Source of the DNA: Candidatus Omnitrophota bacterium
Lineage (GTDB): Bacteria > Omnitrophota > Gorgyraeia > JABMRN01
Direction: 5' to 3'
Assembly: GCA_028702395.1 (NCBI GenBank)
Contig: JAQVOV010000002.1
Coordinates: 27,213-69,632 of the forward strand
Length of the DNA stretch: 42,420 nucleotides
Position 1 is the stretch's first letter, and each line of letters starts with the position of its first letter. Shown piece by piece: positions 6,213 through 37,227 of this stretch. The position numbers and the translations under genes were made by a program. The notes beneath the pieces were generated by a model, which was not told the origin of the DNA, made no database searches, and worked only from the letters and a program-made list of their open reading frames with translations.

Positions 6213-6327
6213 ATAGTGACTATTAACTAGAAATTAGTGACTGGAAAAGTCTACATAACGTTATCTTTAAATCAATTTATTCTAATCACTAGTCACTTGT
6301 CACTAATCACTAACCCCTATTAATCCC
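6213..6327. repeat. composite intergenic hairpin element (TAGTGAC-word arms, TATCTTTAAATCAATT core)
   Basis: Arms at 6214-6244 (TAGTGAC TATTAAC TAGAAAT TAGTGAC TGG) and 6282-6313 (CTAATCACTAGTCACTTGTCACTAATCACTAA). Core TTATCTTTAAATCAATTTATT at 6261-6281. Terminal CCCCTATTAATCCC at 6314-6327. Confidence 0.75.
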
Positions 6328-7078: not shown

Positions 7079-7105
7079 CTTATACTTCAAATCAAGTCCA
7101 ATACC

Positions 7106-8143: not shown

Positions 8144-8366
8144 TTTATCTCCTTTATAGCATCTGCAAGGTAAAAGTAAAAAGGTAAAAGTAAAAAACCT
8201 GTTTTCATTGTGGAGTCTTTTGTTTTTTTTGTAGGGGCGTATTGCAATACGCCCCTACAACGCTCTATTTGAACGTTCCATTAGCTACACGTAATGCGTA
8301 GTTCAATCCAGGACGTTCCACCCTTTTTACTTTTGCCTTTTTCCTTTTTACTTATCTTCCTATTAA
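8144..8366 (-). repeat. composite intercistronic hairpin element (GGTAAAA/GTAAAAA-word arms)
   Basis: Arms at 8167-8197 and 8324-8360. CATTGTGGAG box at 8198-8219. GC hairpin GTAGGGGCGTATTGCAATACGCCCCTAC at 8231-8258. Boxes GAACGTTCCAT (8271-8281) and AGGACGTTCCAC (8310-8321) flank an inner block at 8282-8305. Confidence 0.8.
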
Positions 8367-9173
8367 CTACTTTCTCGGTCCAAGCACAGGATCTTCAAAC
8401 CTAAGATCAATATATTCAAGTCCTTTAACATCAATATTCTTATCTTGTAAGATAAATTGAAGTTTCTTTATTTTTTCAGAAAAATCTTGTTGCCCCATTC
8501 GTATTTCAATAGGTCCATTCAGTTGAACAATGAGATTTTTGGGATTAGAAACATCTATGCTTTTTATGCCATGTTTTTTTATTTCAGGCACGTTATAAAA
8601 TATCGATAATACACTTTTTGCAAGTTCAACTCTATCTGAAGATATTTTTTCTCCAATAGAAGGTTTTGTCCATATTTTAAAACCTGTTATAAGCGGTAGA
8701 TCTGACATAGTTGCTTGATCATATACAAGAACAGTTGAATCATTATCAATAGCATATTGCCCAAAAGCATTTATTGATGCAAGCGGCACACGTTGATCAA
8801 CCATAAGTTCTATCCTATCAGGTAAAACTCTTTTAACAACAATATTCTTTATTTGAGGATAATTCTTGTTAAGCTGATATTCTAACCACTTAATATTCAC
8901 TTTGAAAATGTTCTCTCCTTTAATATTCTCAGTTTCTTTGATCGTCTTCAAAAAGCTGATATCCCTGCTTTGTCCTGTATTGTTTACAATAACAATACTT
9001 TTGACCCGAAAATACTTTATTCTCATAATATAATTTCTAAGGGCAAATCCCAAAACAAGTAGGATCAATAAAACAAGCAAAAAAGGGAAACATTTCTTGA
9101 ACACTGTTTTGATCACTTCTATTATTTTATCTTTTTTTTCTGAAAACACGTTACGTTTTCTTTTCCTAGCCAT
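8367..9173 (-). CDS. ftsQ: cell division protein FtsQ
   Basis: 268 aa with a basic N-terminus, one TM helix and a POTRA-like region. It sits between ddl and ftsA. Confidence 0.8.
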   Translation of the reverse strand: MARKRKRNVFSEKKDKIIEVIKTVFKKCFPFLLVLLILLVLGFALRNYIMRIKYFRVKSIVIVNNTGQSRDISFLKTIKETENIKGENIFKVNIKWLEYQLNKNYPQIKNIVVKRVLPDRIELMVDQRVPLASINAFGQYAIDNDSTVLVYDQATMSDLPLITGFKIWTKPSIGEKISSDRVELAKSVLSIFYNVPEIKKHGIKSIDVSNPKNLIVQLNGPIEIRMGQQDFSEKIKKLQFILQDKNIDVKGLEYIDLRFEDPVLGPRK

Positions 9174-9309
9174 TGTTACTCCTTTATAGCGATTTTAGCT
9201 GTCAGCTATCAGCGTTCAGCTATCAGCAAAGGATCTTTCTAGAATCATTTTTTAGATCCCCTCTTTTAGGACGTTCCACAAGCTGACAGCTGAAAGCTAA
9301 TGGCTGATG
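9174..9309 (-). repeat. intercistronic hairpin element (AGCTNTC-word arms)
   Basis: Arm TAGCTGTCAGCTATCAGCGTTCAGCTATCAGC (9196-9227) faces arm AAGCTGACAGCTGAAAGCTAATGGCTGATG (9280-9309). Box AGGACGTTCCAC at 9268-9279. Confidence 0.8.
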
Positions 9310-10260
9310 TTAACCGATCTCATCGTCCTGTCCATAGCGCACTTTTTTAAATACCGCAAGCTCAAGTATCTGTTCACATAGTTCGTCAAAAGATATCCCA
9401 AAAACTTTTGCTGCTTTAGGCAACAAAGACCTTTCAGTAAGTCCCGGGATCGTATTAACCTCAAGAACATATATTTTACCTTGATGATCCATCCTCATAT
9501 CAACTCGCGAAAAGTCCTCACAACCCAAGGTATTATGGGTCAATAATGCAATATCACTGATCTCCTGTTTTTTTTCATCTGATAATTCTGCAGGACAAAT
9601 ATATTCTGTTTGTTTATCTATGTATTTTGCATTAAAATCATACACATTGTCCTTAGCAATGATCTCAACAACAGGCAAGACAGATTTCCCTAGGATACCA
9701 ACTGTTAATTCTTTTCCGTCTATGAATTCCTCAAAAATTATCGTATTTCCATACTGAAAAGCCTTATTCATAGCTGTTTTTATATCTTTTTTATCAATTA
9801 CAATACTTAATCCAAAACTAGATCCTTCAGTAGCAGGTTTTATTACAACAGGTAAACCGAATTCATACGAATCAATATTAAAATATTGTTCTTTGTTTAC
9901 GATCATATACGGAGGAACTAGAATATTATTATCACTAAGGATCTTCTTTGTTAATTCCTTATCCATACAAACTTTTGAAGATAAAGGCCCTGATCCTGTA
10001 AAAGCTATACCATATTCAGATAAAAACTGCTGTATTGTACCATTTTCACCTTCTTTACCATGTAAAGCAATAAAAGCAATATCAATATTCTCATTTAGTA
10101 TCTGCTGCGGCATATTCTGTGTTACATCAATAAATACAACATTAAAACCTTTTCTTTGGAGTGCTTTGAATACAGCAGTTCCAGATACAAGGCTTATCTC
10201 TCTTTCGGAAGAAGTTCCTCCTGCAATAACACCAATTTTAAATTCGTGAAGCGTTTTCAT
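9310..10260 (-). CDS. ddl: D-alanine--D-alanine ligase
   Basis: 316-aa ATP-grasp protein with typical Ddl N-terminus (GGTSSEREISLVSG) and C-terminus (EVNTIPGLTERSLLPKAA). Confidence 0.95.
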   Translation of the reverse strand: MKTLHEFKIGVIAGGTSSEREISLVSGTAVFKALQRKGFNVVFIDVTQNMPQQILNENIDIAFIALHGKEGENGTIQQFLSEYGIAFTGSGPLSSKVCMDKELTKKILSDNNILVPPYMIVNKEQYFNIDSYEFGLPVVIKPATEGSSFGLSIVIDKKDIKTAMNKAFQYGNTIIFEEFIDGKELTVGILGKSVLPVVEIIAKDNVYDFNAKYIDKQTEYICPAELSDEKKQEISDIALLTHNTLGCEDFSRVDMRMDHQGKIYVLEVNTIPGLTERSLLPKAAKVFGISFDELCEQILELAVFKKVRYGQDDEIG

Positions 10261-11135
10261 ACTATTATTATCTCCATCTCAAGTTCTATATTTTTATTTT
10301 TTTTCACTACTTCCTTTATCTTTTTTATAAGAAACAATACATCTTCAAAACTTGCATTGTTCTGATTCACAATGAAGTTTGCGTGTTTACTTGAAACTTC
10401 AGCCCCTCCTTTAGTAAATCCCTTCAACCCACATTCGTCTATTATCTTTCCTGCAGAGATCCCCTGAAGATCAGGGTTTTTAAATACACACCCTGCAGAA
10501 TTCTTATCTATCGGCTGAATATCTTTTTTGTTTTCCAGTATCTTTTTATACTGACACATTACATTTTCAGGAAGATCTTTTTCCAATTCAAATTCAACCT
10601 GCAAAATTATATTATTCTTAAGCCCTGAACTTCTATATACAGGGTTCAACTGCTTTTTTGTAACTTCAAACAGATTTCCTTCCATATCCATTAGAATGAC
10701 TTTCTTGATAAATGAGCATATCCACTTATCGGAGCCTGCATTCATATAAACAGCTCCACCAACAGTAGCAGGTATCCCTGCAAAAATTTCCAAACCTTTC
10801 AATCCTTTTGCTGCAGAAAAAAGTATCGTTTGTGAAAGGCTCATCCCTGCTCCAACAGTTAGAACATTATCTTTTTCAAAGATATTAGAAAAATCTTTTC
10901 CTGTCAATTTGATCACAACTAGATCATGCTCATCACTTTTAAAAAGAATGTTACTGCCTGCTCCCAGAACAAAGACCTCTTTTTGTTCTTCTTTACATAT
11001 TTTAATGACGGTTTTAAGGTCTTCGATATCTTCACATAATACAAGGTTCTTTACTTTTCCTCCTATCTTAAAAGTAGTGTAAGGCCCTATTTCTATGTTA
11101 GAAAAAGCTTTTCCTTTAATGTTATCGAAGTTCAT
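10257..11135 (-). CDS. murB: UDP-N-acetylenolpyruvoylglucosamine reductase
   Basis: 292 aa with an FAD-binding region (GAGSNIL) and MurB C-terminal domain. It overlaps ddl by 4 nt. Confidence 0.95.
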   Translation of the reverse strand: MNFDNIKGKAFSNIEIGPYTTFKIGGKVKNLVLCEDIEDLKTVIKICKEEQKEVFVLGAGSNILFKSDEHDLVVIKLTGKDFSNIFEKDNVLTVGAGMSLSQTILFSAAKGLKGLEIFAGIPATVGGAVYMNAGSDKWICSFIKKVILMDMEGNLFEVTKKQLNPVYRSSGLKNNIILQVEFELEKDLPENVMCQYKKILENKKDIQPIDKNSAGCVFKNPDLQGISAGKIIDECGLKGFTKGGAEVSSKHANFIVNQNNASFEDVLFLIKKIKEVVKKNKNIELEMEIIIV

Positions 11136-12516
11136 ATTTTTGATCCAGTTTCCTTACAAGCTCAGGAATTATTTCATTCACATCACCGGCCCCTAAAATA
11201 AGAACAATATCTCCAACGTTGATCTCTTTGAACAAAGTCATGACAATATCTGCCTTAGGAACAATGTAGGCCTCTTTTATTCCTTTTTCTTTGACCCCAA
11301 AACATATATTGCAAAGGCCTATCCCATCTAGCGGATCTTCGCTTGCAGCATATATATCCGTAAGTATTAATTTATCAACCCCTGAAAAACATTCACAAAA
11401 CTCTTGTTCAAGATGCATTGTTCTGGAAAACCTGTGCGGCTGAAAAACCACTATTATACGGTTCTTTTTCAACAATTTTGCAACACTTATTATTTTTGAT
11501 ATTTCAGTAGGATGATGTGCATAGTCTTCTACTATTACAACCTCATTTGCGCTATATTTGACCTCAAATCTACGTTTAACATTTTTGAAATCCTTGATTA
11601 TTCCCGCAATATCCGAAAATGACATCCCCATCTTCTTTGCAACAGCAATTGAAGCAAGTGCATTATACACATTGTGTTCACCTAAAACCCCTAGAGAGCA
11701 TTTCCCTAATTCCTGTCCGTTAAAAAAGCAGGAAAACCGCATCCCGACATCTTCTGGTTTAACATTAATGGCAAAGATATCTGCTTTAGAAGAAAAGCCG
11801 AAACTTATCTTTTCACCTTTATACGATCGGCTAAGGTCACGTAATATCTCATCATCATAATTATAGAACAAAACCCCATCTTCTTTTGTGTTCTTTATAA
11901 AACTGTTAAAAGCATCCGTTAAATTATCCATTGTTTTATAATATTCCATGTGATCTTTTTCAATATTAGTTATAACAGAATATTTAACTGCCATATCCCT
12001 TATGAATCCGTCACTCTCATCCATTTCAGAAACAATGATCTCACTTCTGCCTTTTTTGGCATTTGATCCAAGAAAATCCATTTCACCTCCAACTAAGATC
12101 GTAGGATCAAACCCGCCCTTTTCCAGTAAAAATGATATCATAGCAGAAGTTGTTGTTTTTCCATGTGTTCCTGCTATGGAAATAGATACTTTCCTTGAAT
12201 CTATGATACGTTTAAGGAATTCCGATCTGAAAATAATAGGGATATTTCTTTCATGTGCTTCTTTTATATCTGAATTATTATTGCGGATATTAAAGGCTCT
12301 TACAACAAGATCAGGTTCATTAATGATACCTTTATGACCAATATTTATTTTAGCCCCTTTTTTTATTAACCTTTGAATAAGAGGATTATCTTTAATGTCA
12401 GACCCTGTTATCATTATTCCACTTTCTATTAGAAGCTCTGCGATCCCACTCATACCAATACCGCCTATACCTACCATATGTATATGTTTTTCTTTAATAT
12501 CAAAAGTATCAGCCAT
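11122..12516 (-). CDS. murC: UDP-N-acetylmuramate--L-alanine ligase
   Basis: 464 aa with N-terminal GIGGIGMSGIAE and the Mur ligase P-loop GTHGKTTT. Confidence 0.95.
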   Translation of the reverse strand: MADTFDIKEKHIHMVGIGGIGMSGIAELLIESGIMITGSDIKDNPLIQRLIKKGAKINIGHKGIINEPDLVVRAFNIRNNNSDIKEAHERNIPIIFRSEFLKRIIDSRKVSISIAGTHGKTTTSAMISFLLEKGGFDPTILVGGEMDFLGSNAKKGRSEIIVSEMDESDGFIRDMAVKYSVITNIEKDHMEYYKTMDNLTDAFNSFIKNTKEDGVLFYNYDDEILRDLSRSYKGEKISFGFSSKADIFAINVKPEDVGMRFSCFFNGQELGKCSLGVLGEHNVYNALASIAVAKKMGMSFSDIAGIIKDFKNVKRRFEVKYSANEVVIVEDYAHHPTEISKIISVAKLLKKNRIIVVFQPHRFSRTMHLEQEFCECFSGVDKLILTDIYAASEDPLDGIGLCNICFGVKEKGIKEAYIVPKADIVMTLFKEINVGDIVLILGAGDVNEIIPELVRKLDQKYELR

Positions 12517-12518
12517 TA

Positions 12519-13610
12519 TTACCTCTTCAAAATGTCTATAATAACTTCACTTAGTTTTTGTGAAGCATTCAGTTCAACTATATTTCTGGCATTTTCAATA
12601 AACTCTTCCCTTATATGTCTATTTTTGACCCACTCACTTACAATATTCTTTATTTGCCCCTGAGACATATTCTTTTCTTCAAGAAGAACTGCTGCCTTTT
12701 TATCAGCAAAGAACTTAGCATTCAAAATTTGAGAATTCTTTTCATTAGGATACGGAATAAGGATCATTGGTATCCCATAAAAAGCTAACTCAAAAACAGC
12801 AGATGCCCCAGCACGTGAAATAGCAATATCCACTATTTTATATATATTATTGATATTTTCAACGTAATTATAAACTTTTGCAATTATATTATGTTGTAAA
12901 TACGTATTTTGGACATATTCAACATCTTTATCACCTGCAATATGGATGATCTCTAATTTTGCTTTTATACTGTCCTCTATTAAACTCAGATCATTAACAA
13001 CGATCTTATTCATAGAGGTAGCTCCCTGACTTCCGCCAATAACAAGTAATTTAACAGTTTTTTGTTCATTTGACAACACTTTTAGTAGATCTTCTTTTTT
13101 ATCAGAGAGTATCTCAGGTCTGATAGGATTTCCTGTTATACATATCTTTTCTTTTAGTGCGCTATCTATCTTTGACGGGAAACTCAAAGCTATTTTATCA
13201 ACATATTTGGATAATATCTGATTAGCTCTGCCTAATACAATATTTTGTTCATGAATAACTGTTTTTATGTGAAACACCTTTGCTAAAAAAACAACAGCCC
13301 CTGTCACATATCCGCCGAAGCCAACAACAACATTTGGTTTTTCCCTGATCAAAATAAAAAAAGAAATTAAAACATCTGATACAAATTTAAACATAAAAGA
13401 AAACATTTTCAATGAAAACTTATATGGCATAGGATTCGCTGAAAGATAATATTTTTTATAGTTAGTATCTTTCAAAAGTTTTTTATCGATCCTTCTTTTA
13501 CTTGCAACAAAAACGACTTCCCAACCTTTTTTTATCATTGTTTGGGCTGTTGAAACTGCAGGGAAAATATGTCCACCGCTTCCACCTGCAACTATTAATA
13601 CTTTGTTCAT
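12519..13610 (-). CDS. murG: UDP-N-acetylglucosamine--N-acetylmuramyl-(pentapeptide) pyrophosphoryl-undecaprenol GlcNAc transferase
   Basis: 363 aa with the N-terminal GGSGGHIFPA motif and GT28 fold pattern. Confidence 0.95.
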   Translation of the reverse strand: MNKVLIVAGGSGGHIFPAVSTAQTMIKKGWEVVFVASKRRIDKKLLKDTNYKKYYLSANPMPYKFSLKMFSFMFKFVSDVLISFFILIREKPNVVVGFGGYVTGAVVFLAKVFHIKTVIHEQNIVLGRANQILSKYVDKIALSFPSKIDSALKEKICITGNPIRPEILSDKKEDLLKVLSNEQKTVKLLVIGGSQGATSMNKIVVNDLSLIEDSIKAKLEIIHIAGDKDVEYVQNTYLQHNIIAKVYNYVENINNIYKIVDIAISRAGASAVFELAFYGIPMILIPYPNEKNSQILNAKFFADKKAAVLLEEKNMSQGQIKNIVSEWVKNRHIREEFIENARNIVELNASQKLSEVIIDILKR

Positions 13611-13763
13611 GATTCTCCTAAAAAATATACTTTGTTATTAGTTATTTGTTATTAGTGTGAGTGGTGGATCGTCCTAAATACAGTTTTCAAACAAACCCTA
13701 TGAAGAGCCTTCTTTCACACACACTAATAACACACACTAATAACTAACTCCAATTAACTCGCT
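13611..13763 (+). repeat. intercistronic hairpin element (TTGTTAT/TAGTGTG-word arms), opposite orientation to the others
   Basis: Arms at 13631-13663 and 13726-13750. Here the box GTGGATCGTCCTAAATA (13664-13680) reads on the plus strand. Confidence 0.75.
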
Positions 13764-14843
13764 CTAATCTCTGGTTGCGTTCAGCAGCAACCCGATCGCT
13801 ATCATATGCACGATCAAAGAAGTTCCCCCATAACTGACAAATGGCAAAGGAAGTCCTTTTGTAGGGAACAGTCCTACTGAAACACCAACATTGACTATGA
13901 CCTCAAAAGCTATCATAAAAACAATTCCGAAAACAAGCATTTTCCTGAACGTATCATTTATTTTAAAAGCAGCTCTTGTTCCCTGCCAAACAAGTGCAAA
14001 AAATAATATGATCAAAGCAGTAACACCTATAAACCCCAATTCTTCTCCAATAATTGACAAAATAAAATCTGTATGTGACGCTGGTAAAAAGAAAAGTTTT
14101 TGTTTTGATTGTCCTAATCCTACTCCCAAAAGACCGCCTGAACCAAGTGCAATATATGATTGTACTATTTGAAAACCTGTGTCTCTTTCGTCTAACCACG
14201 GATTAATAAAAGCCATTATCCTTTTACGTCTGTATGGAACAGAAAAAATAAGATAATAGATGAAAGGTACAGTTGAAAGGATCGTAACAGCAATATGTTT
14301 AAAATTCGCACCCCCTATAAAGAGCATTAAGAACATCATAAACCCTATAGTCATAGTAGTTCCAAGGTCAGGTTCCAAAAGAACAAGACCCATGATGGTA
14401 CCGCAAACTACAAGAACAGGCAGATATCCTCTGAAAAGATTTATCATGCGGGATTCATTTTTATCTACAAAGTACGCAAGATATATAAGAACCGACAGTT
14501 TAGCCAGTTCTGATGGTTGAACATTGAAAAAAATAAAACTTATCCACCTGCTTGCACCACCTGCAGTGTGTCCTATTCCTGGAATAAGAGCGCATACCAG
14601 TAACCCTATTGTTGTTAAAATAATAAGTTTAGCATGTTTTTTTAAAATATCACAATCAATGGACATAAAAAACAATGCCGCTATCACGCCTATGATCAGA
14701 TTTAAAAGATGCCGTTTAAAATAATAAAGACTATCCCCGAATAACTGCGAAGCATAAATAGCGCTTGAACTGTATACCATTACAAGCCCGAACATAAGCA
14801 GGATAAAAACCGTTGAAACGATCGATATGCGTAAACTTGACAT
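13764..14843 (-). CDS. ftsW: SEDS-family peptidoglycan polymerase FtsW
   Basis: 359-aa polytopic membrane protein of the FtsW/RodA family, in the dcw position for ftsW. Confidence 0.9.
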   Translation of the reverse strand: MSSLRISIVSTVFILLMFGLVMVYSSSAIYASQLFGDSLYYFKRHLLNLIIGVIAALFFMSIDCDILKKHAKLIILTTIGLLVCALIPGIGHTAGGASRWISFIFFNVQPSELAKLSVLIYLAYFVDKNESRMINLFRGYLPVLVVCGTIMGLVLLEPDLGTTMTIGFMMFLMLFIGGANFKHIAVTILSTVPFIYYLIFSVPYRRKRIMAFINPWLDERDTGFQIVQSYIALGSGGLLGVGLGQSKQKLFFLPASHTDFILSIIGEELGFIGVTALIILFFALVWQGTRAAFKINDTFRKMLVFGIVFMIAFEVIVNVGVSVGLFPTKGLPLPFVSYGGTSLIVHMIAIGLLLNATRD

Positions 14844-15085
14844 ATTATTTCCTTTATATGACTTTTAAGTAAAAAGTAAAAAGTTAAAAGTTAAAAGTTA
14901 AAAATCTGTTATCATTGTAGAATCTTATGTTAGGCTCATTTTTAGTGTCTGTGTCTGTTTCTGTGTCTGGAAAGGAACATCCTAAATATAGTTTTTTTAC
15001 ATCTTTTAGAAGGATCCACCACTGACACAAACACAAACACTGACACTAATTACTTTTACCTTTTTCCTTTTTCCTTAATCTTCTA
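14844..15085 (-). repeat. nested composite element: GTGTCT-word element inside a GTAAAAA-word element
   Basis: Outer arms at 14865-14904 and 15050-15076. CATTGTAGAATCTT box at 14905-14926. Inner arms at 14942-14970 and 15020-15049 enclose GGAACATCCTAAATATAG...AGAAGGATCCAC. Confidence 0.8.
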
Positions 15086-16444
15086 TTAACTGAATCTCTC
15101 TTTAACGATCCGCTGAAACACCTCGCCTCTATGTTTATAACTTGTGAACATGTCAAAGCTTGAACACATAGGAGACAAAAGTATCACTTGATCCTTTTGG
15201 GCAATTTTGATAGCCCTATCTATCGCATCTTCCATTGACCCTGCCTTTTCAACAGGAACATTTTTTTTATCCATTACATCAAAAATTTTATCTGCAGCTT
15301 CTCCTATAAGAATTATTTTGTAGACCTTTTCTTTTATTTCAGGTAAAACACTTAAATAATCTCCTCCTTTATCTCTGCCGCCTGCGATCAAAATGATCTT
15401 CTTATCCAAAGACTGTATAGCTCTTTTTGTTGCATCAACATTAGTTGCTTTTGAATCATCCATGAATACGATCCCGTCCTTTTCATAAAATTTTTCGAGT
15501 CTATGGGCTAATGGTTGAAAATCTTCAATAGCACTGATAACAGCTTCAATATTAACTCCGGCAGATATAGCCATAAAAGAAGAGGCGCAAATATTTTCCA
15601 GATTATATTTCCCTTTTAATTTTGTTTTTGGAATATCAAAAAGTTTTTTTACATCATCATCTATCTTTGAATACATGACATTGTTCAATACAAACGCGCC
15701 TTCAACTTCTTCTGTTACACTATAAAAGAACTTTTTTCCTCTGCCTGGTATTATAAGGTCTTTTGAAGCTTTATCATCATGATTTATCAACGCAATATCA
15801 GATTCGATCTGATTTTCAAAAAGTCTGGCCTTCGTATCAGCATAATCATCAAACGAAGTATAACGCTCTAAATGATCATCCGTAACATTCAATATACATC
15901 CTATATTAACTTTAAGATCCACTATTTTTTCCAATTGAAAAGAGCTTATCTCCAATATAACAAATGTATCATCATCAATATTATCTATCTCTCCCGAAAA
16001 AGAGTTTCCTATATTACCGCAAACAATATACTTTTTTGAATCTTTTTCAAACATCTTTCCTAATAAGGTAACTACTGTCGATTTACCGTTAGTACCTGTC
16101 ACAGCAATTATTTTTCCTTTACAAAAATTATATGCAAATTCTATTTCACTTATTATAGGAATGCTGTTGGCGAAAGCATATTTAACAGGAAGACTGTTGT
16201 TATCCACCCCAGGACTAAGTACGATTATATCTGTGCCTGAAAGAAACTCTTCTGTATGCTGGCCGAATTCAACTTCAATAAAATTTTCCTTTAAAACATC
16301 AATATCCTGTGTGATCTTTTCTTCTGAACAACTATCAGTAACAGCCGCTATTGCGCCATGTTTGTGTGCCAGAATAGCAGCATCAAACCCGCTTCTGCCT
16401 AAACCTACAACAACTATTCGTTTGTTTCGTATATCCATCTTCAC
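15086..16444 (-). CDS. murD: UDP-N-acetylmuramoylalanine--D-glutamate ligase
   Basis: 452 aa with N-terminal GLGRSG and the Mur ligase P-loop GTNGKST. Confidence 0.95.
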   Translation of the reverse strand: MKMDIRNKRIVVVGLGRSGFDAAILAHKHGAIAAVTDSCSEEKITQDIDVLKENFIEVEFGQHTEEFLSGTDIIVLSPGVDNNSLPVKYAFANSIPIISEIEFAYNFCKGKIIAVTGTNGKSTVVTLLGKMFEKDSKKYIVCGNIGNSFSGEIDNIDDDTFVILEISSFQLEKIVDLKVNIGCILNVTDDHLERYTSFDDYADTKARLFENQIESDIALINHDDKASKDLIIPGRGKKFFYSVTEEVEGAFVLNNVMYSKIDDDVKKLFDIPKTKLKGKYNLENICASSFMAISAGVNIEAVISAIEDFQPLAHRLEKFYEKDGIVFMDDSKATNVDATKRAIQSLDKKIILIAGGRDKGGDYLSVLPEIKEKVYKIILIGEAADKIFDVMDKKNVPVEKAGSMEDAIDRAIKIAQKDQVILLSPMCSSFDMFTSYKHRGEVFQRIVKERFS

Positions 16445-16648
16445 CTCTAATGGGATTCAAGGTAAAAGTAAAAAATCTGTTACCATTGTGGAATCTTCTT
16501 GGATTTCTTTGTAGGGGCGTATTGCAATACGCCCCTACAAAAACCTCTTTCAGAACTTTCCACATTTTTTGTTCTTAACTAAATTTAGGACGCTCCATCC
16601 TTTTACCTTTTACCTTTTTACTTTTTCCTTATAAGTCTTATTACTCGC
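16445..16648 (-). repeat. composite intercistronic hairpin element (GGTAAAA-word arms)
   Basis: Arms at 16459-16475 and 16599-16628. Box TCTGTTACCATTGTGGAATCTT at 16476-16497. A GC hairpin at 16511-16538 is identical to 8231-8258. Further boxes at 16551-16565 and 16587-16598. Confidence 0.8.
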
Positions 16649-17740
16649 TTAACGCATCTTTAAGCTTGCTAATGACAGTAACACTAAAATTATTGCAATT
16701 ATCCAAAACCTTATTATAACCTTTGATTCATGCCATCCCTGAAGCTGGAAATGATGATGTATTGGCGCCATTCTAAAAACTCTTTTTCCTTTACGCAGTT
16801 TACAAGACGCAACTTGAATGATCACTGAGAGAGCTTCAGCAACAAATATACCACCAACAAAAAACAGTAAAAGTTCTTTTTTTATCAATACACTGATTAT
16901 TCCTATTACACCGCCTAAAGATAATGAACCTGTATCACCCATAAAAACACTTGCAGGATGACAATTGAACCATAAAAACCCAAGACCAGCCCCAACTATT
17001 GAAGAGCACAAGACAGTAAGTTCCCCGCTACCAAACAAATAATATACATTTAAATACTCGCTCATGTTAATATTTCCTGTAATATAGCTTATTATTGCAA
17101 AAGCCAATGCTACAATTGTCACACATCCGATAGCAAGTCCATCAAGTCCATCAGTAAGATTCACAGCATTGCTTGATCCTACGATCACAAGAACCACAAA
17201 TAGAATGTAAAAAATTCCCAAATTTAAAACAGCATTTTTAAAAAAAGGGAAATATAATGTCGAAGACATCTGCGGATCATTATAAAGATAAAGCCCTATC
17301 AAAAAGGCAATAATGACCTGCCCTAAAAACTTTGCACGACTTTTTAATCCTTTATTATGCTGATTTGATATTTTTAAAAAATCATCAATGAACCCTACTA
17401 ATCCTAGCCACAATATGCCTACAAGACCTATAATGATGAATTTATTATCCAGTCTTGCCCATATAAGTGTAGAGCCCACAACTGCAAGGAGTATCAATAT
17501 CCCTCCCATTGTAGGCGTACCTTCTTTATGAACATGTAACTTATGAAGTTCCTGAACATGATCTTTTCTAATAATTTGACCGAAATTCATTTTTGCAAGC
17601 CATCTTATAATAATGGGTCCCAAAATAACACTTATTAGAAAAGCTGTAAAACTAGCCATAGCTGCGCGGAAAGTTATATATTTAAAAAGATTGAACCCGA
17701 ACCAAACATCTTTTAATGGGTAAAGAAAATAATATAGCAT
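16649..17740 (-). CDS. mraY: phospho-N-acetylmuramoyl-pentapeptide-transferase
   Basis: 363-aa polytopic protein with MraY motifs (NAVNLTDGLDGLA, HHHFQL). Confidence 0.95.
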   Translation of the reverse strand: MLYYFLYPLKDVWFGFNLFKYITFRAAMASFTAFLISVILGPIIIRWLAKMNFGQIIRKDHVQELHKLHVHKEGTPTMGGILILLAVVGSTLIWARLDNKFIIIGLVGILWLGLVGFIDDFLKISNQHNKGLKSRAKFLGQVIIAFLIGLYLYNDPQMSSTLYFPFFKNAVLNLGIFYILFVVLVIVGSSNAVNLTDGLDGLAIGCVTIVALAFAIISYITGNINMSEYLNVYYLFGSGELTVLCSSIVGAGLGFLWFNCHPASVFMGDTGSLSLGGVIGIISVLIKKELLLFFVGGIFVAEALSVIIQVASCKLRKGKRVFRMAPIHHHFQLQGWHESKVIIRFWIIAIILVLLSLASLKMR

Positions 17741-17869
17741 TAGACTCCTTTATAGCAACTTTAGCTTTCAGCTTTCAGCAAAAAGATCGGTTTAACAAAA
17801 AGTTTCTTTAAAAAACTCATTTAGGATCTTCCTCTGGCTGAGAGCTGACAGCTGAAGGCTGAAGGCTGC
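17741..17869 (-). repeat. intercistronic hairpin element (AGCTTTC/GCTGAAG-word arms) overlapping the murF 3' end
   Basis: Arm at 17760-17779 faces arm at 17835-17869. Box AGGATCTTCCTC at 17823-17834. The right arm and the box lie inside the murF reading frame. Confidence 0.75.
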
Positions 17870-19223
17870 TTTTCATTAACTCTATCTTTCGCACAACCTC
17901 TTCCATCTTCGCTTTACGTGAACCTTTGACAAGTATTATATCATTAGGTTCAAGTATATTAAACAATTGTTTATACAGACTTTCTTTTTCATTAAAAACA
18001 AAAACATGTGCTTTTTCCATACCATTTTTTATTGCACCATTTGCTATATACGCGGCTTCTTTTCCGACAGTGATAAGTTTGTCTATTTTTGCAGATGCTA
18101 TGTTCTTCCCGATCTGAATATGCAGTTTTTTGGACTGTTCTCCGAGTTCTAACATATCTGAAACAATTATGATTTTTTTATTTTTCCCTATTTTATCCAA
18201 GGATTCTATTGCCTTTTGCATTGATAAAGGATTAGAATTGTAAGTATCATCAATAACTGTATATCTGCCTTTTCTACTTACAAAGAATCTGTTCTTGTTT
18301 TCTGCTCTATATTTTTTCAAACTCAGCGCCATTTTTTTTAAAGGTATATCAAAGATCTGTCCAACAGTTACTGCACATAATACATTATAAAGGTTATGTT
18401 TCCCAATTAAGCTCACTGTAAATTTAACACTACCAACATAAAACGAAAGAGCCCCTTTTTTATCATAATATTTGTCATTATGACTTTTCTTGTCTATGTT
18501 AAACATGACTTTTTTACAGTGTACCTTTATTTTGTTCAAAAGCTGATCATCTCCGTTCAACACAGCTATTCCATTATCAGGCAAAGAATTGATAAGTTCT
18601 TTTTTTTCTTTTAAAACATTAAGGCGTGTCTTAAATCCTTTTAAATGTGCATCTCCAACATTTGTTATCACTCCTACGTCAGGCTGTACTATCTGTGACA
18701 ATCTAGAAATTTCACCGGGTGAATTTGTCCCAAGCTCAACAACACCTACTTCATGTGTTTTCTTTAACTGAAATAATGTTAAAGGAACACCGATAAAATT
18801 ATTCTTTGTTCCTTCTGTTTTAAGAACCTTATAACTTTTAGATAAAAGAAAAGCTATTATTTCTTTTGTGCTTGTCTTTCCTGCAGAACCTGTTATTGCG
18901 ACTATTGGGATATCCATTTTACATCTGTAAAAACAAGCAATATCACCCATATTTTTGATCGTATCTTTTACGAAAAAAACGGGAATATGTTTTTCTACTG
19001 CAACGGCATCTTTTGTATTTTTTGAAGCAATAATGCAAACTGCTCCTTTTTTATATGCTTCGAGTACAAAATCATTACCGTTGAATCTTTCCCCTTTGAT
19101 GGCAATGTAAAGATCGCCCTTTTTCACCTTGCGGGAATCAATGCAAACACCTTTGATCTTTGTTCGATCATCTTTATATTTACGGTTCTTTAGAACCTGG
19201 GCTATTTCTGAAACAGTGAACAT
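17817..19223 (-). CDS. murF: UDP-N-acetylmuramoyl-tripeptide--D-alanyl-D-alanine ligase
   Basis: 468 aa with the Mur ligase P-loop GSAGKTSTKE. The last ~17 aa (SSLQPSAVSSQPEEDPK) are encoded by the repeat element. Confidence 0.9.
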   Translation of the reverse strand: MFTVSEIAQVLKNRKYKDDRTKIKGVCIDSRKVKKGDLYIAIKGERFNGNDFVLEAYKKGAVCIIASKNTKDAVAVEKHIPVFFVKDTIKNMGDIACFYRCKMDIPIVAITGSAGKTSTKEIIAFLLSKSYKVLKTEGTKNNFIGVPLTLFQLKKTHEVGVVELGTNSPGEISRLSQIVQPDVGVITNVGDAHLKGFKTRLNVLKEKKELINSLPDNGIAVLNGDDQLLNKIKVHCKKVMFNIDKKSHNDKYYDKKGALSFYVGSVKFTVSLIGKHNLYNVLCAVTVGQIFDIPLKKMALSLKKYRAENKNRFFVSRKGRYTVIDDTYNSNPLSMQKAIESLDKIGKNKKIIIVSDMLELGEQSKKLHIQIGKNIASAKIDKLITVGKEAAYIANGAIKNGMEKAHVFVFNEKESLYKQLFNILEPNDIILVKGSRKAKMEEVVRKIELMKSSLQPSAVSSQPEEDPK

Positions 19224-19436
19224 TGGACTCCTTTATTTAGTGACTAGTAACTAGAAACTAGTTACTAGAAATAATTGCTTTAAAGCTATTTCGTTTATGA
19301 AGTTTCTTACATAATCTCTCTAAAATTGTTGCTAATTAATCAATTAAATTTTTATTCTCTATCTTAGGATATCTTAAGATCAATTTATCCTAGTCACTAG
19401 TCACGAATCCCTATCACCTGATACCTAGTCACGAAC
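19224..19436. repeat. composite intercistronic hairpin element (TAGTNAC-word arms, ATCTTAAGATCAATTTATC core)
   Basis: Arms at 19237-19268 and 19390-19436. Core motif at 19369-19389. The right arm overlaps the last codons of murE. Confidence 0.75.
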
Positions 19437-20843
19437 TCCTATTAACTCCTTAACAACCTTCACATCATCAAACTTCATCTTCTTGTTTCCTATTATCTGA
19501 TATTTCTCATGCCCTTTTCCGGCAATAATAACGATACTATCCTTTTGTGCGATGTTCAAAGCTATTTTGATAGCTTCACGTCTGTCTTTTTCTATAATGA
19601 CTTTACTAATATATTTTTTTATGCCTTTTACAATATCATTGATAATACAAGCAGGATCTTCTGTTCTTGGATTATCACTTGTGACAAGGACTTTATCTGA
19701 TAACATGCATGCAACTTCACCCATTTTGGGTCTTTTAGTCTTATCTCTGTCTCCTCCGCATCCGAAAACTGTAATAATTTGTTTTGGTCTTATTTCCTGT
19801 AAGGTCCGTAAAACATTTAAAAGTGCGTCAGCAGTATGTGCATAATCGACAAACACTTTAAACTTTTTATTGATCTTTACAGGCTGCAGACGACCATCCG
19901 GTGGTTTAGCATTACCAATACTTTTTATAACATCTTTGATATTAATACCTAAAAAAACACCCGCAGAAACAGCTGCTAATATATTTGAAATATTATGTCT
20001 GCCGATAAGGGATGTTTTTACCTTGTACTTTTTATCAAAAACATTGAGATCAAAAGTTGAACCTGCCAAAGTCATTTCAATGTTTTCTGCATAAACATCC
20101 GTTTTTTTACCTACACTGAAGCCTATGCATCTGTTCTTAAGCTCTTTTTTAAGTATTTTTCCTTTTGGGTCATCAATATTGACAATAGCAATTCCTTTTT
20201 TTTTAAGGTTAACAAATATTTTTTTCTTTGCTTTGAAATAACTATTTATATTTTTGTGATAATCCATATGTTCTGGGGTAAGATTGGTAAAGACTGCCAC
20301 GTCGTAAAAAACATGTCCTGCTCTTTCCTGTTCCAACGCATGAGAAGAAACTTCCATTATGGAGTACTTTATCTTTTCTCTGACAATATCCGACAACAAT
20401 CTGTTGAGTGTAAAAGCATCCGGAGTAGTCCTATCTGCATCAACTGTCTTTTCACCTATCTTATAATAGATCGTTCCTATCAGACCTGTCCTTTTACCTG
20501 AATCCTTTAATATCTTATCCAGCAAAAACGAAACAGTTGTCTTTCCATTAGTACCTGTTATACCAATATTAAAAAGTTTTTTTGAGGGTTCATCGAAATA
20601 CTCTGAACAATTTCTCGAATACTCTTTATGAGAATTTTGTACGATCTTTATTTTTTTAGAAGAAACATGTACCTTTTTGGAAAGTTTCTTCCATATATCC
20701 TTTTGGACTATACAAAACTTTGCACCTTTATCTATTGCAGACTCAATATGCTGATGTCCATCGGAAACAGCTCCTTTTAAGGCAATAAAGATATCCCCTT
20801 TTTGAACTTTTCTTGAATCTGATGTGAATTTTGGTCGTTCCAT
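19425..20843 (-). CDS. murE: UDP-N-acetylmuramoyl-L-alanyl-D-glutamate--2,6-diaminopimelate ligase
   Basis: 472 aa with the P-loop GTNGKTT and a MurE-type DNPR motif (SDNPRTEDP). Confidence 0.9.
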   Translation of the reverse strand: MERPKFTSDSRKVQKGDIFIALKGAVSDGHQHIESAIDKGAKFCIVQKDIWKKLSKKVHVSSKKIKIVQNSHKEYSRNCSEYFDEPSKKLFNIGITGTNGKTTVSFLLDKILKDSGKRTGLIGTIYYKIGEKTVDADRTTPDAFTLNRLLSDIVREKIKYSIMEVSSHALEQERAGHVFYDVAVFTNLTPEHMDYHKNINSYFKAKKKIFVNLKKKGIAIVNIDDPKGKILKKELKNRCIGFSVGKKTDVYAENIEMTLAGSTFDLNVFDKKYKVKTSLIGRHNISNILAAVSAGVFLGINIKDVIKSIGNAKPPDGRLQPVKINKKFKVFVDYAHTADALLNVLRTLQEIRPKQIITVFGCGGDRDKTKRPKMGEVACMLSDKVLVTSDNPRTEDPACIINDIVKGIKKYISKVIIEKDRREAIKIALNIAQKDSIVIIAGKGHEKYQIIGNKKMKFDDVKVVKELIGVRD

Positions 20844-20949
20844 TTAACTCCTTTATAGCATGTTCGAAATTCGGTAATCGAAAATCGGAAATCGAATTGT
20901 TTTTTGTTTTCCGACTACCGTCTCCCGACTCCCGATTTACGAATGCTTA
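20844..20949 (-). repeat. minimal hairpin element: two 35-nt heptamer-word arms and a 12-nt loop
   Basis: Left arm TTCGAAA TTCGGTA ATCGAAA ATCGGAA ATCGAA (20863-20896). Loop TTGTTTTTTGTT. Right arm TTCCGAC TACCGTC TCCCGAC TCCCGAT TTACGAA (20909-20943). Confidence 0.85.
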
Positions 20950-22626
20950 TTAACTCTCCTCCGGCACCTCTAGATACCTTAATGACTTCTGCATAACTTC
21001 CCTGAATACAGGTGCAGCAACACTTCCTCCGAAATAATCGCCCTTAGGTTCATTTACACTCACAACAACAACAAGTTCTGGGTCTTTATAAGGTGCAAAT
21101 CCCATAAATGAAGCAATGTATTTGCCTTCTGCATACCTGCCGCCTATGACCTTTTGTGCTGTTCCTGTTTTACCGCAAGCATAATATCCATTCAATATTG
21201 CTTTTTTCCCTGTACCGCTTTGTACAGCTCCTTTTAATATTTCTTTAACAGTATCTGCACTTTTTCCGCTTATAACCCTTTTTTTTATTTTTGGCTTGAA
21301 TTTTTTTATCACGTTACCATTTTCATCCCTTATCTCTTTAACAATATACGGCTGCATCAGCAATCCTCCATTAGCAACTACGCTCAAAGCATCCGCCAAT
21401 TGTAAAGTTGTACATGAAACACCCTGTCCCATTGGGATAGTTGTCATATCAGATGGGGTCCACGTTCTCACGTTCCTTAAAATTCCATTTTCCTCTCCAG
21501 GGAGATCTATACCTGTTGACTGACCAATTCCAAAATTCAATAGATAATTGTAGAAATCATCTTCTCCTATTTTAGCTGTTGCTTTAACTGTTCCTATATT
21601 GCTGGATTTCTGTATAACTTGAGAAAAAGACAGGTTACCATAACCATGATAGTCATGAAGAACCCTTTTTCCGACGCTATACTGTCCATTCTCACAAAAG
21701 AACATATCATCAGGTTTGACCTTTCCAGTATCAATATCAGCACACGCACTTAACACTTTAAAAACACTGCCAGGTTCATAAACATCTGTTATACACCTAT
21801 TTTTGAGATCCTCTTTCTCTGCTTTTGAATATTGATTATTCTCATAACTGGGATAAGAACACATTGCATATATCTCTCCCGTAATAGGGGACATTACTAT
21901 TATCATTGCAGATTCCGGTTTTCTTTTTTTCACAAGCTCTCGCATTTCGGTTTCTACTGTATGCTGTATTACTTCATCAATAGTAAGTATAATATCATAC
22001 CCTTTTTTGGCAGGTAAGAACTCCTCGTATGATGATATTTTATTTTGCCTGGCATCCCTGAAAAAGCTTTTCCATCCGTATTTACCCCTTAAAAAATTTT
22101 CATAATAAAGTTCTATACCTTCGATCCCTTTGTTATCAATATCTGTAAAACCTATCACATGACATAAGAGATCACCTTTAGGATAACTTCTTTTTGTTTC
22201 CTGTAAAAGGTAAAGCCCGTTGATTTTTGATATTTTTATTCTGGTGGTTTCTTCAGACGAAAGTCCGCGTTTTATCCAGATGAACGCCTTATCTTTATTG
22301 ATACGTTCCCTCACAATGTTTTCATCAACATCTATCAGTTCACATATAGACCTTATAACTTCTTCTTTGTTGGTTATTTCACGAGGAACAGCATAAAGGC
22401 TTTCTATAGGCGTGTCAACTGCAAAAGCCCTGTTATTTCTATCAAAAATACCACCTCTTTCAGGTGCAAGTTCTATTTTAACTCTATGCTGTATATCTGC
22501 TTTTTTCTTGAAAAACTCATAGTTTATCACCTGCCTATTATACACTCTTAATATAAGACATATGAATAATATGCAAAACAAAAAAAGGACTATTAATTGT
22601 CTTTTACGGTTTATGTTTCTATACAC
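20950..22626 (-). CDS. ftsI: peptidoglycan D,D-transpeptidase (class B PBP)
   Basis: 558 aa with an N-terminal TM helix and the transpeptidase motifs SVFK, SSN and KTGTA. Confidence 0.9.
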   Translation of the reverse strand: MYRNINRKRQLIVLFLFCILFICLILRVYNRQVINYEFFKKKADIQHRVKIELAPERGGIFDRNNRAFAVDTPIESLYAVPREITNKEEVIRSICELIDVDENIVRERINKDKAFIWIKRGLSSEETTRIKISKINGLYLLQETKRSYPKGDLLCHVIGFTDIDNKGIEGIELYYENFLRGKYGWKSFFRDARQNKISSYEEFLPAKKGYDIILTIDEVIQHTVETEMRELVKKRKPESAMIIVMSPITGEIYAMCSYPSYENNQYSKAEKEDLKNRCITDVYEPGSVFKVLSACADIDTGKVKPDDMFFCENGQYSVGKRVLHDYHGYGNLSFSQVIQKSSNIGTVKATAKIGEDDFYNYLLNFGIGQSTGIDLPGEENGILRNVRTWTPSDMTTIPMGQGVSCTTLQLADALSVVANGGLLMQPYIVKEIRDENGNVIKKFKPKIKKRVISGKSADTVKEILKGAVQSGTGKKAILNGYYACGKTGTAQKVIGGRYAEGKYIASFMGFAPYKDPELVVVVSVNEPKGDYFGGSVAAPVFREVMQKSLRYLEVPEES

Positions 22627-22643
22627 TTATTATCAGTGGTAAG

Positions 22644-23000
22644 TTATTTAGAATCACGTGCTTCAGCTGTCAATGTGATACTATCAAAAAATCTATCTAA
22701 CATGCTTATACGCGGGCTCAAAGGTTTCTCTTGTTCAGCCTTTACACAAGCATAATAGATGTTTTGCACATCAGCCTCAACTAATTCTATACTTTCTGAA
22801 CTCAACCTCTCGCATAACGTAAACGGAGATTCAAGTTTATTTAGATTATACACCAATTGTTTATGCTCGTCAAGGTAAGTAGAAAGAAGCTGTTCCTGTT
22901 TTGTGATACCGTAGCCTATATTGATGATCTCAACATTTTGATATACATAAAGAAGTGTCAATAATGTCAATGTTATACTTATACTGAAAAACTTTCTCAT
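22644..23000 (-). CDS. ftsL: cell division protein FtsL-like
   Basis: 118 aa with an N-terminal TM helix followed by a coiled-coil-like segment. It lies between rsmH and ftsI. Confidence 0.6.
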   Translation of the reverse strand: MRKFFSISITLTLLTLLYVYQNVEIINIGYGITKQEQLLSTYLDEHKQLVYNLNKLESPFTLCERLSSESIELVEADVQNIYYACVKAEQEKPLSPRISMLDRFFDSITLTAEARDSK

Positions 23001-23132
23001 ATTATATTTTCCTTTCTCTTTATATATCCAAACTCGTAACCTTTATATTTGTTCTTTATTAACTTTCCCCTATCATCTGTAAGCTATCACCAAAAGAAGT
23101 ACCTAAACAACCATTACTAATCGAATTTTTTT

Positions 23133-23198
23133 AGGACCATCCACAAGCTGAGCCCTGCCTGCCGGCAGGCAGGGCTAATAGCTGAAAGCTGATGGCTA
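23133..23198 (-). repeat. hairpin-element arm (AGCTGAA words) carrying an inserted GC-rich palindrome
   Basis: Box AGGACCATCCAC at 23133-23144. The arm AAGCTGAG...CTAATAGCTGAAAGCTGATGGCTA is interrupted by CCCTGCCTGCCGGCAGGCAGGG (23153-23174). The partner arm near 23070-23095 is degenerate. Confidence 0.6.
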
Positions 23199-24905: not shown

Positions 24906-24912
24906 TTTATCC

Positions 24913-24939: not shown

Positions 24940-24947
24940 ATATTACA

Positions 24948-37097: not shown

Positions 37098-37129
37098 TAT
37101 AGCCCGAGCAGGAAACCTCAATCTTTTTC

Positions 37130-37218: not shown

Positions 37219-37227
37219 CTTCCTTTT

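Follow-up and report, generated by a model that had tools for sequence, protein, structure and literature searches.

Heptamer-repeat hairpins with composite architecture between the genes of the dcw operon in an Omnitrophota bacterium

Introduction

In the hupS-hupL gap of cyanobacteria, intercistronic arrays of heptamers, known as short tandemly repeated repetitive (STRR) sequences, pair into hairpins that were proposed to stabilise transcripts or to couple translation (PMC2670836). A heptamer stem also forms P6b of the Nostoc trnL intron, where it varies between close relatives and has foreign elements inserted into it (PMC3488679). Here we describe a 42,420-nt stretch of DNA from a Candidatus Omnitrophota bacterium (contig JAQVOV010000002.1, positions 27,213 to 69,632; henceforth the window), in which hairpins with heptamer-built arms lie between the genes of the division and cell wall (dcw) operon.

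Several other kinds of small repeat bear comparison with these hairpins. In E. coli, hairpins of repetitive extragenic palindromic (REP) sequences and bacterial interspersed mosaic elements (BIME), for example at malE-malF, are intercistronic and are expected to hold up 3' exonucleases and thereby give differential stability within one transcript, and the transcripts of Correia elements are cleaved by RNase III. One type of REP, tagged with GTAG, consists of that tetranucleotide plus a GC-rich palindrome (PMC3733652). Correia/NEMIS of Neisseria, ERIC of Yersinia, RUP/BOX of pneumococci and Nezha of cyanobacteria are all bacterial miniature inverted-repeat transposable elements (MITEs; PMC3733652) that are transcribed together with genes. 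As for simple repeats, TAACTGA heptamers are found in Beggiatoaceae, cyanobacteria and Bacteroidetes (MacGregor 2015, PMC4679880) and GGGAATC/GGGGATT repeats in Xanthomonas and Nostoc (PMC4692102). Heptamers are the preferred long simple repeat of many bacteria and vary between related genomes while keeping the same gene neighbours (PMC4692102, PMC4679880); slippage has been put forward to explain them (Mrazek 2007, as cited in PMC4679880 and PMC4692102).

Results

Inserts at the dcw junctions

The window has a G+C content of 33% and carries nearly all of its genes on the minus strand. By NCBIfam, that strand holds a complete dcw cluster (mraZ, rsmH, ftsI, murE, murF, mraY, murD, ftsW, murG, murC, murB, ddl, ftsQ and ftsA) running from mraZ (24465-24956) to ftsA (7106-8143); a 118-aa ftsL-like open reading frame (ORF) had no NCBIfam match. 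An earlier note on this DNA had reported non-coding inserts at nine of the 14 dcw junctions, with four others tight or overlapping and mraZ/rsmH different. Measurement of the gaps bears this out: the nine inserts span 106-242 nt, the four remaining junctions either overlap or measure 17 nt or 2 nt, and mraZ/rsmH has a spacer of its own, 354 nt long.

The inserts are pieced together, as mosaics, from four modules, namely heptamer arms, a core, small palindromes of REP type and a ribosome-binding tail. They are listed below (all on the minus strand; z, folding score against dinucleotide shuffles).

ftsQ/ftsA, 8144..8366, gap 223 nt: A-type composite, minimum free energy (MFE) -65.7, z = -6.4; GTAAAAG-type arms of 30 nt, 87% complementary (5' arm 8324-8353, 3' arm 8167-8196); core box 8307-8321, second core box 8268-8282, mini hairpin 8284-8302; REP 8231-8258; right core end (box2) 8199-8219; GCTATAAAGGAG 8149-8160.
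ddl/ftsQ, 9174..9309, gap 136 nt: B-type, z = -4.8; AGCTGAC-type heptamers in 5' arm 9280-9301 and 3' arm 9193-9229; core box 9265-9279, right core end 9228-9242; GCTATAAAGGAG 9179-9190.
ftsW/murG, 13611..13763, gap 153 nt: arms 13630-13662 and 13717-13758 of GTTATTA/GTGTGTG units, z = -4.6; core box reversed, on the plus strand, 13664-13678.
murD/ftsW, 14844..15085, gap 242 nt: two nested elements, z = -5.6; outer element with A-type arms 15050-15082 and 14863-14907 and box2 14906-14926; inner element with GTGTCAG-type arms 15020-15049 and 14945-14969 and inverted core ends 15005-15019 (minus) and 14972-14986 (plus).
mraY/murD, 16445..16648, gap 204 nt: A-type, z = -6.7; 5' arm 16596-16630, 3' arm 16459-16474; core boxes 16584-16598 and 16549-16563; REP 16511-16538; box2 16477-16497.
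murF/mraY, 17741..17880, gap 76 nt, with a further ~65 nt of the element inside the end of the murF ORF: B-type, z = -2.4; 5' arm 17835-17871 and core box 17820-17834, both inside that ORF; 3' arm 17758-17781; GCTATAAAGGAG 17745-17756.
murE/murF, 19224..19424, gap 201 nt: F-type, z = -3.2; TAGTGAC-type arms 19389-19411 and 19237-19269; a second kind of box, AATTGATCTTAAGATA, at 19370-19385; no GTGGAACGTCCT core.
ftsI/murE, 20844..20949, gap 106 nt: bare heptamer-array hairpin without a core box, z = -4.4; arms 20911-20942 (TCGGGAG units) and 20864-20897; A-rich loop of 14 nt; GCTATAAAGGAG 20848-20859.
rsmH/ftsL, 23001..23205, gap 195 nt: decayed B-type, z = -1.4; 5' arm 23174-23203, degenerate 3' arm 23069-23091; 22-nt GC palindrome nested in the 5' arm, 23153-23174; core box 23130-23144, right core end 23096-23107.

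The single shared plan that the earlier note saw in these inserts lumps together at least four distinct families. Its claim of inverted arms in each holds at eight of the nine junctions, where folding beats the shuffles with z between -2.4 and -6.7; rsmH/ftsL folds weakly because its 3' arm is degenerate. Complementarity between arms ranges from 76 to 100%.

The inserts were also correctly described as non-coding, and as neither sense-strand terminators nor CRISPR. Rfam 15 gave no match at gathering thresholds over the whole window, and its sole match in 8000-23300 was a chance hit to a plant miRNA (E = 0.44). A tRNA/tmRNA search found none, and blastn of the ftsQ/ftsA element against a plasmid collection gave no matches. 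A CRISPR array was rejected, as whole genes lie between the copies and the spacing is irregular. The combination of GC-rich stem and sense-strand U-tract that marks an intrinsic terminator does not occur in the elements: the junction elements hold no sense-strand terminator except for a weak 6-bp stem at 16601-16587, and the REP is followed by a run of A in mRNA sense. Consequently, the elements are presumably transcribed through. Promoter-like sites were not enriched (83, against 73.8 ± 7.8 expected), and the idea that TGCTATAAA is an extended -10 element was dropped on that result.

Heptamer arrays

The outer arms, which had been taken for plain inverted repeats, are inverted tandem arrays of 7-nt units, a feature overlooked by the earlier note. 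Tandem Repeats Finder (TRF) reports period 7 at almost every arm, and our own scan of the window found 24 period-7 arrays, together 1002 nt long; periods 6 and 8 gave 3-7 arrays. All but two of the 24 fall in non-coding DNA, which makes up 17% of the window (p = 2.6e-15). At least six unit types occur, varying by element (GTAAAAG, AGCTGAC, TAGTGAC, GTGTCAG, TCGGGAG and ACGCATA), while the two arms of any one element are made of complementary units.

When the window units were compared with those of STRR1-3, taken as CCCCAGT, TTGGTCA and CAACAGT, and with their complements, there was no match. The resemblance to STRR sequences is thus one of kind, not of sequence family. It extends to tandem 7-nt units of several classes, with inverted arrays pairing as hairpins, to an intergenic or intercistronic location, to variation of copy number and sequence among close relatives, and to the insertion of non-heptamer elements into the hairpin (PMC2670836, PMC3488679); we could see an STRR-like layout directly in two cyanobacterial loci, L098 and L115. 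What differs here is the phylum, the unit sequences, a lineage-restricted core (GTGGAACGTCCT), the occupation of so many junctions of one essential operon and a conserved Shine-Dalgarno (SD) tail.

The TAACTGA and GGGAATC/GGGGATT repeats offer a second parallel. They too are intergenic heptamer arrays near start codons with a patchy phylogenetic distribution, and they keep their gene neighbours while length and sequence vary between relatives. Those arrays, however, are almost all direct and made of one unit, whereas the window has many units, mostly in inverted arms around cores.

One array of the window is itself direct. About 38 copies of CATGACC/CATTACC/CATGACT occupy a divergent intergenic region and have no inverted partner; this is the same heptamer process outside hairpins.

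35445-35726, direct array, TRF 37.4 copies, score 370.

It lies just upstream of a 55-aa Cys-rich (zinc-ribbon-like) ORF at 35232-35399 on the minus strand, and opposite it is a Fic/DOC gene at 35900-37003.

Core, boxes and tail

At the apex of the stems sits the core, whose ends are inverted (left GTGGAWSRTCCTRAA, right TTTAGGAYSWTCC or AAGATTCCAC). About six copies keep the ends GTGGAWSRTCCT and AGGAYSWTCCAC (or AAGATTCCAC) in inverted orientation, while the outermost arms differ by family. A box next to one arm had been attributed to every insert. The box, GTGGAACGTCCTRAA, is real, with 14 matches at ≤3 mismatches against 1.13 expected in the window, but it is present at only seven of the nine junctions: ftsI/murE has none and murE/murF has a different one. 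The second box ascribed to the larger copies, AAGAYTCCACAATGRWAACAG, was recovered (three matches against 0 expected) and corresponds to the right core end in the A family. The different kind of box, AATTGATTTAAAGATA, occurs in three exact copies and a diverged one; it stands where the core would be, together with arms of TAGTGAC or GTGTCAG type. Small palindromes are inserted in the apexes or the arms, and GCTACGC-type mini hairpins sit between two direct copies of the core. As the core contains ACGTCC, we considered whether it is a CGTC-tagged REP; the tag is not next to a stem, and the candidate was rejected.

The fourth module is a tail, (G)CTATAAAGGAG, which follows the 3' arm and ends 4-5 nt before the start codon. 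The exact 12-mer GCTATAAAGGAG occurs four times, against 0.21 expected, and all four copies are at dcw junctions, before the starts of ftsA, ftsQ, mraY and murE. It always follows an element directly, whatever the arm type, and is also present in a related contig, L002 (8202-8213 and 13581-13592). Between the window and L002 it is not conserved by gene, and it is absent where no element lies upstream. More generally, TATAAAGGAG-N4-5-ATG precedes seven of 11 genes that follow an element and none of 26 other genes (p = 3e-5).

Families of composites and comparison with relatives

Homologues of its MurD assign the organism to Candidatus Omnitrophota. The nearest relatives by MurD identity, all metagenomic contigs, were L003 (87%), L002 (75%; a low-coverage long-read assembly with frameshifted genes) and L004 (59%). 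Scanning GTDB genomes with MurD peptide patterns for further relatives gave 35 pattern matches, none of them confirmed, and an exact-protein look-up for strain variants of the same species returned only same-sample contigs identical to the window.

For seven A-type copies (three in the window, four in L002) the alignment takes in arm, core, right core end, 3' arm and tail, and four B-type copies align over arm and core, two of them also over 3' arm and tail. The REP occupies the same internal position at ftsQ/ftsA and mraY/murD of the window and at ftsW/murG of L002. These alignments, together with the shared position of the REP, show that composites of both families were copied between junctions as wholes.

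At murD/ftsW one element lies within another, and the ftsQ/ftsA copy of L002 is chimeric, its left half being A-type and its right half of another type. The last 17 codons of murF (SSLQPSAVSSQPEEDPK*; region 17817-17871) consist of B-type arm and core box sequence, and MurF of L002 is 17 residues shorter (451 aa against 468 aa). Nesting, truncation, chimerism and an overwritten gene end are typical of decaying mobile DNA. Comparing each 5' arm with the reverse complement of the 3' arm, we counted 30 G·U, 19 A·C and 78 non-pairing mismatches, with no G·U bias relative to A·C (p = 0.15). A stem selected as RNA would be expected to be rich in G·U and to have few disruptive mismatches, so the observed pattern favours an origin at the DNA level and fits decaying DNA palindromes better than an RNA-selected stem.

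Occupancy of the same junction differs between relatives. The mraY/murD junction holds an A-type element in the window and in L002, and a core-less ACGCATA-type hairpin in the closer L003; murD/ftsW measures 242 nt in the window and 54 nt, with no element, in L002. In L004 the junctions are mostly ≤10 nt, including several that are occupied in the window. The L004 ftsL/ftsI gap (3256-3409) contains a four-unit array of TCAGTTA, the reverse complement of TAACTGA.

Period-7 arrays reach 57 per 100 kb in the window and 78 in the close relatives, and a limited set of unit types is shared by three genomes. In four loci from other Omnitrophota (57 kb), which we located through a glycosyltransferase 82-83% identical to one encoded in the window, we counted a single period-7 array and found neither core nor REP. 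When JGI metagenomes were scanned for the core, as TGGAACGTCCTRRAWGAGG, 51 loci came up, of which only L119 and L161 (the latter being L003) are real; the other 49 were chance or coding matches in unrelated high-GC organisms. In these metagenomes the core was found in one sample only, that holding L003.

The 28-nt palindrome

A perfect 28-nt palindrome, GTAGGGGCGTATTGCAATACGCCCCTAC, occupies two A-type apexes, and its copies at 8231-8258 and 16511-16538 are identical over 28 of 28 positions, as the earlier note had stated. It comprises GTAG and a GC-rich 20-nt palindrome, GTAG being mirrored by CTAC so that the tag is paired. Judged by its sequence, the hairpin can be assigned to the GTAG-tagged REP type. 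Together with the STRR-like arms, this assignment makes the architecture less foreign than the earlier note had it, which recognised neither; the likeness it drew to REP/BIME and MITE-type elements was apt. The window holds two exact and three variant copies.

An exact search of GTDB with the 4-nt loop left free found the 28-nt element GTAGGGGCGTATnnnnATACGCCCCTAC in at least 114 loci (L005-L118) from many phyla. Hosts among the matches listed include cyanobacteria, Planctomycetota, Chloroflexota, Atribacterota, CPR groups, Nitrospirota, Sumerlaeota, Ignavibacteria, Omnitrophota and others, and the element is also in 10 IMG/VR contigs (L172-L181). Since the flanks are unrelated, the palindrome itself is the unit. 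Among the matches listed, nine of 135 REP copies lie in or beside ORFs resembling REP-associated tyrosine transposases (RAYT), with HUH and Y motifs. Two such ORFs match NF047646 with E-values (1e-18 and 2e-17) that fall short of its curated cut-off, and Pfam Y1_Tnp matches one; in several genomes the REP is read in frame within RAYT-like ORFs, for example as 'VGAYGHTPLQ' in L089. One exact REP across phyla, sometimes inside RAYT-like genes, points to a REP/RAYT lineage of very broad host range. A full-text literature search for the 28-nt sequence found no paper describing it.

Compared with described GTAG REPs and their RAYT genes (Di Nocera 2013, PMC3733652; REPIN/RAYT, PMC3116915), the element shares the GTAG-plus-palindrome build, the extragenic location in the window and, for some copies in other genomes, a place in or beside RAYT-like ORFs. 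It differs in that the tag is paired, in that no RAYT gene lies within the 42-kb window, and in that its sequence spans phyla, whereas the REP families described so far are mostly confined to one species or genus; here, moreover, the REP is only one module of a composite. Three classical one-sided GTAG REPs (GTAG plus palindrome) are found in the murF/mraY gap of L004.

Loci that bear the REP are also rich in heptamers: 775 kb of them contain 141 period-7 arrays, and 333 kb of control loci contain 18. With cyanobacteria set aside, REP loci have 14 period-7 arrays per 100 kb, against six for period 8. Inverted heptamer hairpins also occur in Atribacterota, Planctomycetota and cyanobacterial loci. 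Examples of REP-bearing loci are L049 (Atribacteria), L034 (Planctomycetes), L085 and L115, and several of the arrays in such loci make inverted hairpins resembling those of the window.

Discussion

We consider it reasonably probable that the inserts consist of small, non-autonomous repeat DNA, nested into mosaics, whose expansion took place in a single Omnitrophota sublineage. In these mosaics, inverted tandem-heptamer arrays of the STRR kind give the long stems, with the lineage-specific core GTGGAWSRTCCT...AGGAYSWTCCAC at the apex, a GTAG-type REP and other small palindromes inserted into apexes or arms, and a TATAAAGGAG SD tail after the 3' arm. Arm length may change by heptamer slippage, symmetry being kept by template switching within the palindrome, and copies would in time be replaced, truncated and nested. 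The REP may be moved in trans by a RAYT-type Y1 transposase encoded elsewhere, and core and arm composites could spread by some transposase or by copying from junction to junction. Insertions would survive only where no gene is broken, where a ribosome-binding site (RBS) is left or supplied and where no terminator is added. Co-transcribed with dcw, the elements would form imperfect hairpins of 25-55 bp, which are probably RNase III targets or 3'-exonuclease barriers and may uncouple the translation of neighbouring cistrons. Such an effect on the mRNA is most likely a by-product, not the reason for which the elements exist.

Like the MITEs mentioned above, the inserts are about 50-240 bp long, non-coding, with inverted ends, next to or between genes; their transcripts would fold into long hairpins, and their presence or absence differs between relatives. 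Unlike those MITEs, they have long arms made of family-specific tandem heptamers in place of one conserved inverted end, and neither a target-site duplication (at the aligned borders) nor a matching transposase (in the window) was found. Like the REP/BIME hairpins of E. coli, they are intercistronic and free of a terminator U-tract, and would be expected to block 3' exonucleases; their stems, in contrast, are much longer, AT-rich and built from simple repeats.

A number of observations weigh against a mobile, essentially neutral origin. The window encodes no transposase, and we recognised no target-site duplications at the aligned family borders, where AT-rich flanks or slippage could hide short ones; on both counts, transposition of the core and arm composites is something that we infer only. 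The core is oriented as the mRNA in 15 of 18 copies, and the purine-rich arm is 5' in all nine A-type copies that can be aligned. These orientations fit a constraint at the RNA level as well as a replication-strand bias; all window genes are co-oriented with the G-rich strand, so that transcription and replication bias are inseparable here. In addition, the window and L002 occupy the same seven junctions, five of them with different types, and this concordance could mean selection for a hairpin, not neutral colonisation. The data comprise 42 kb of this genome and about 22 kb from close relatives.

Some of these observations are what one would expect if the hairpins were selected operon punctuation, that is, intercistronic RNA signals that set relative dcw expression and whose sequence is free to change as long as the stem is kept. 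The signals could be sites for RNase III, stabilisers of 3' ends or insulators of translation, placed immediately upstream of a standard RBS. Beyond the shared junctions and the orientation of the cores, such a role agrees with stems that end 13-26 nt upstream of the start codon and leave the SD mostly unpaired, with the lack of sense-strand terminators, with a conserved TATAAAGGAG tail behind arms of at least five unit types, and with the functions proposed for the hupS-hupL hairpins (PMC2670836). The arm mismatches, mostly non-pairing and without a G·U excess, speak against it. So does the comparison with relatives: in L004 the genes adjoin closely with no element between them, and other Omnitrophota have almost none of the repeats, hence dcw does not need the elements; murD/ftsW, occupied in the window, is empty in L002. 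Further copies lie in a convergent gap, before unrelated genes, or as truncated and chimeric fragments. All told, we regard selected punctuation, the main rival of the mobile-repeat account, as unlikely, if worth keeping in mind.

A bolder version of the mobile-repeat account would join the two ideas, and we offer it as a speculation with somewhat less conviction still. The composites might be mobile intercistronic cassettes, each consisting of a hypervariable heptamer hairpin with its own SD tail (TATAAAGGAG-N5-ATG), able to insert between packed essential genes, or to pry them apart, without silencing the downstream gene. The hairpins might then take over operon punctuation, in the form of mRNA processing and segmental stability. 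The heptamer-palindrome machinery, for its part, might be horizontally spread, co-occurring with one RAYT-type REP in Omnitrophota, cyanobacteria, Atribacterota, Planctomycetota and others.

It is improbable, in our view, that the elements arose in place, by slippage that makes arrays in AT-rich spacers and template switching that copies an arm, with the families reflecting gene conversion. The preference for heptamers in many bacteria and the proposed slippage (Mrazek 2007, as cited in PMC4679880 and PMC4692102) lend this some plausibility, as do unpaired direct arrays such as that at 35445-35726, the core-less array hairpins at ftsI/murE and at mraY/murD of L003, and the failure to find target-site duplications or a transposase at the borders and in the window noted above. 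Composites with an identical internal order and REP position nevertheless recur at different junctions in two genomes, the same limited unit types are found in three, and the nesting at murD/ftsW is clean.

A role at the DNA level, in which the arrays would for instance bind a nucleoid or regulatory protein, form cruciforms or pause replication, or serve as phase-variable spacers, appears very improbable: strict 7-nt periodicity, a 38-copy array in a promoter region and the co-occurrence of heptamer arrays with the REP in unrelated phyla would suit it, but six or more unrelated units would require as many binding specificities, and no candidate binding protein is encoded nearby.

Artefacts of assembling or sequencing a repeat-rich metagenome bin can be dismissed for practical purposes, even though short-read contigs break within the repeats and L002 is the kind of assembly noted above, because three independent Logan short-read contigs (L001, L170 and L171; SRR22315503) have 0 mismatches to the window and homologous elements are present in three other assemblies. 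The Logan contigs reproduce arms, core and REP, and L170 includes the entire ddl/ftsQ element. All terminate within repeats; in practice, such repeats fragment short-read assemblies of these genomes.

What is new in this case is the phylum, the unit sequences, the GTGGAACGTCCT core, the A and B composites and the density in an essential operon; the portable SD tail is possibly new as well. At the level of sequence, novelty seems limited to the GTGGAACGTCCT core and the A and B composites, which are restricted to this lineage. The dcw cluster is among the most conserved and tightly packed of bacterial operons, and nine opened junctions show how large a load of selfish or structural DNA is tolerated in it. 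The observations also carry the cyanobacterial pattern, STRR hairpins into which other elements have inserted, over to a phylum that is uncultured and small-celled. To our knowledge, the origin and function of STRR sequences have been unexplained since 1990; with different elements at the same junctions in close relatives, the Omnitrophota repeats provide a second independent system for studying turnover, array growth and effects on mRNA. Most worth pursuing are the origin of paired heptamer arrays and their co-occurrence across phyla with one REP.

Other elements and genes in the window

Related copies outside the operon, which had been placed at 1.8-2.0, 3.9-4.1, 6.2-6.3, 27.4-29.7 and 37.1 kb, were all recovered (minus strand where a strand is given).

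1900..2030, minus strand: truncated A-type copy upstream of fhs, without REP, box2 or 3' arm; arm 1995-2029; core boxes 1980-1994 and 1929-1943 around a GCTACGC-type mini hairpin, 1944-1977.
3915..4136, minus strand: argS/mfd gap, z = -3.7; GTGTCAG/GACAC-type arms 4110-4133 and 3925-3944; box AATTGATTTAAAGATA at 4088-4103.
6250..6320, minus strand: F-type copy upstream of rsfS; TAGTGAC-type arm 6281-6320; box AATTGATTTAAAGATA 6262-6277.
27425-27505 and 29496-29579: two copies of a palindrome within a palindrome, ~80 nt; in 27425-27505, a REP-variant palindrome GTAGGGRCAATT...AATTGCCCCTAC with a second palindrome in its loop.
27998-28094: ACGCATA/ACGGTTC-type array 27998-28054, box AATTGATTTAAAGATA 28055-28070, TAGTGAA arm 28071-28094; minus strand.
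29602-29690, minus strand: array of CGTGAAC/CGTAAGT units, the upstream inverted partner of 27998-28054.
37100..37227, minus strand: B-type half copy in a convergent intergenic region, without 3' arm, z = -3.8; arm 37184-37218, core box 37168-37182; REP variant GTAGGGGCAATTCATGAATTGCCCCTAC with a AATTCATGAATT centre, 37131-37158.

In the nested ~80-nt palindrome, the REP variant can also be written GTAGGGGCAATT...AATTGCCCCTAC and the palindrome in its loop CCCTATACC...GGTATAGGG. The arrays 27998-28054 and 29602-29690, 1.5 kb apart, are complementary at 52 of 57 aligned positions and bracket an intact gene (28100-29314). This 404-aa gene was considered as a transposase carried between long-range arms; it encodes instead a highly conserved TreT-like glycosyltransferase, which in other Omnitrophota has different neighbourhoods and no such arms.

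Downstream of ftsA, in 6213-7105 (14635-15278 in L002), ftsZ was not found. FtsA itself is short (345 aa) and scores under the FtsA cut-off. The gene is followed by a promoter-like AT-rich stretch and later by rsfS and argS. This region contains a conserved GC hairpin, GGGTAGCGGTGTATCCGCTACTC, at 6341-6363, and a 55-aa ORF at 6462-6629 that is conserved in L002 (14797-14964) and has no Pfam family. At the other end of the window, a helix-turn-helix (HTH)/Gp49 pair (HigA/HigB-like) at 38464-39167 adjoins a gene for a 419-aa protein with a predicted pPIWI-associating nuclease domain, 39496-40755.

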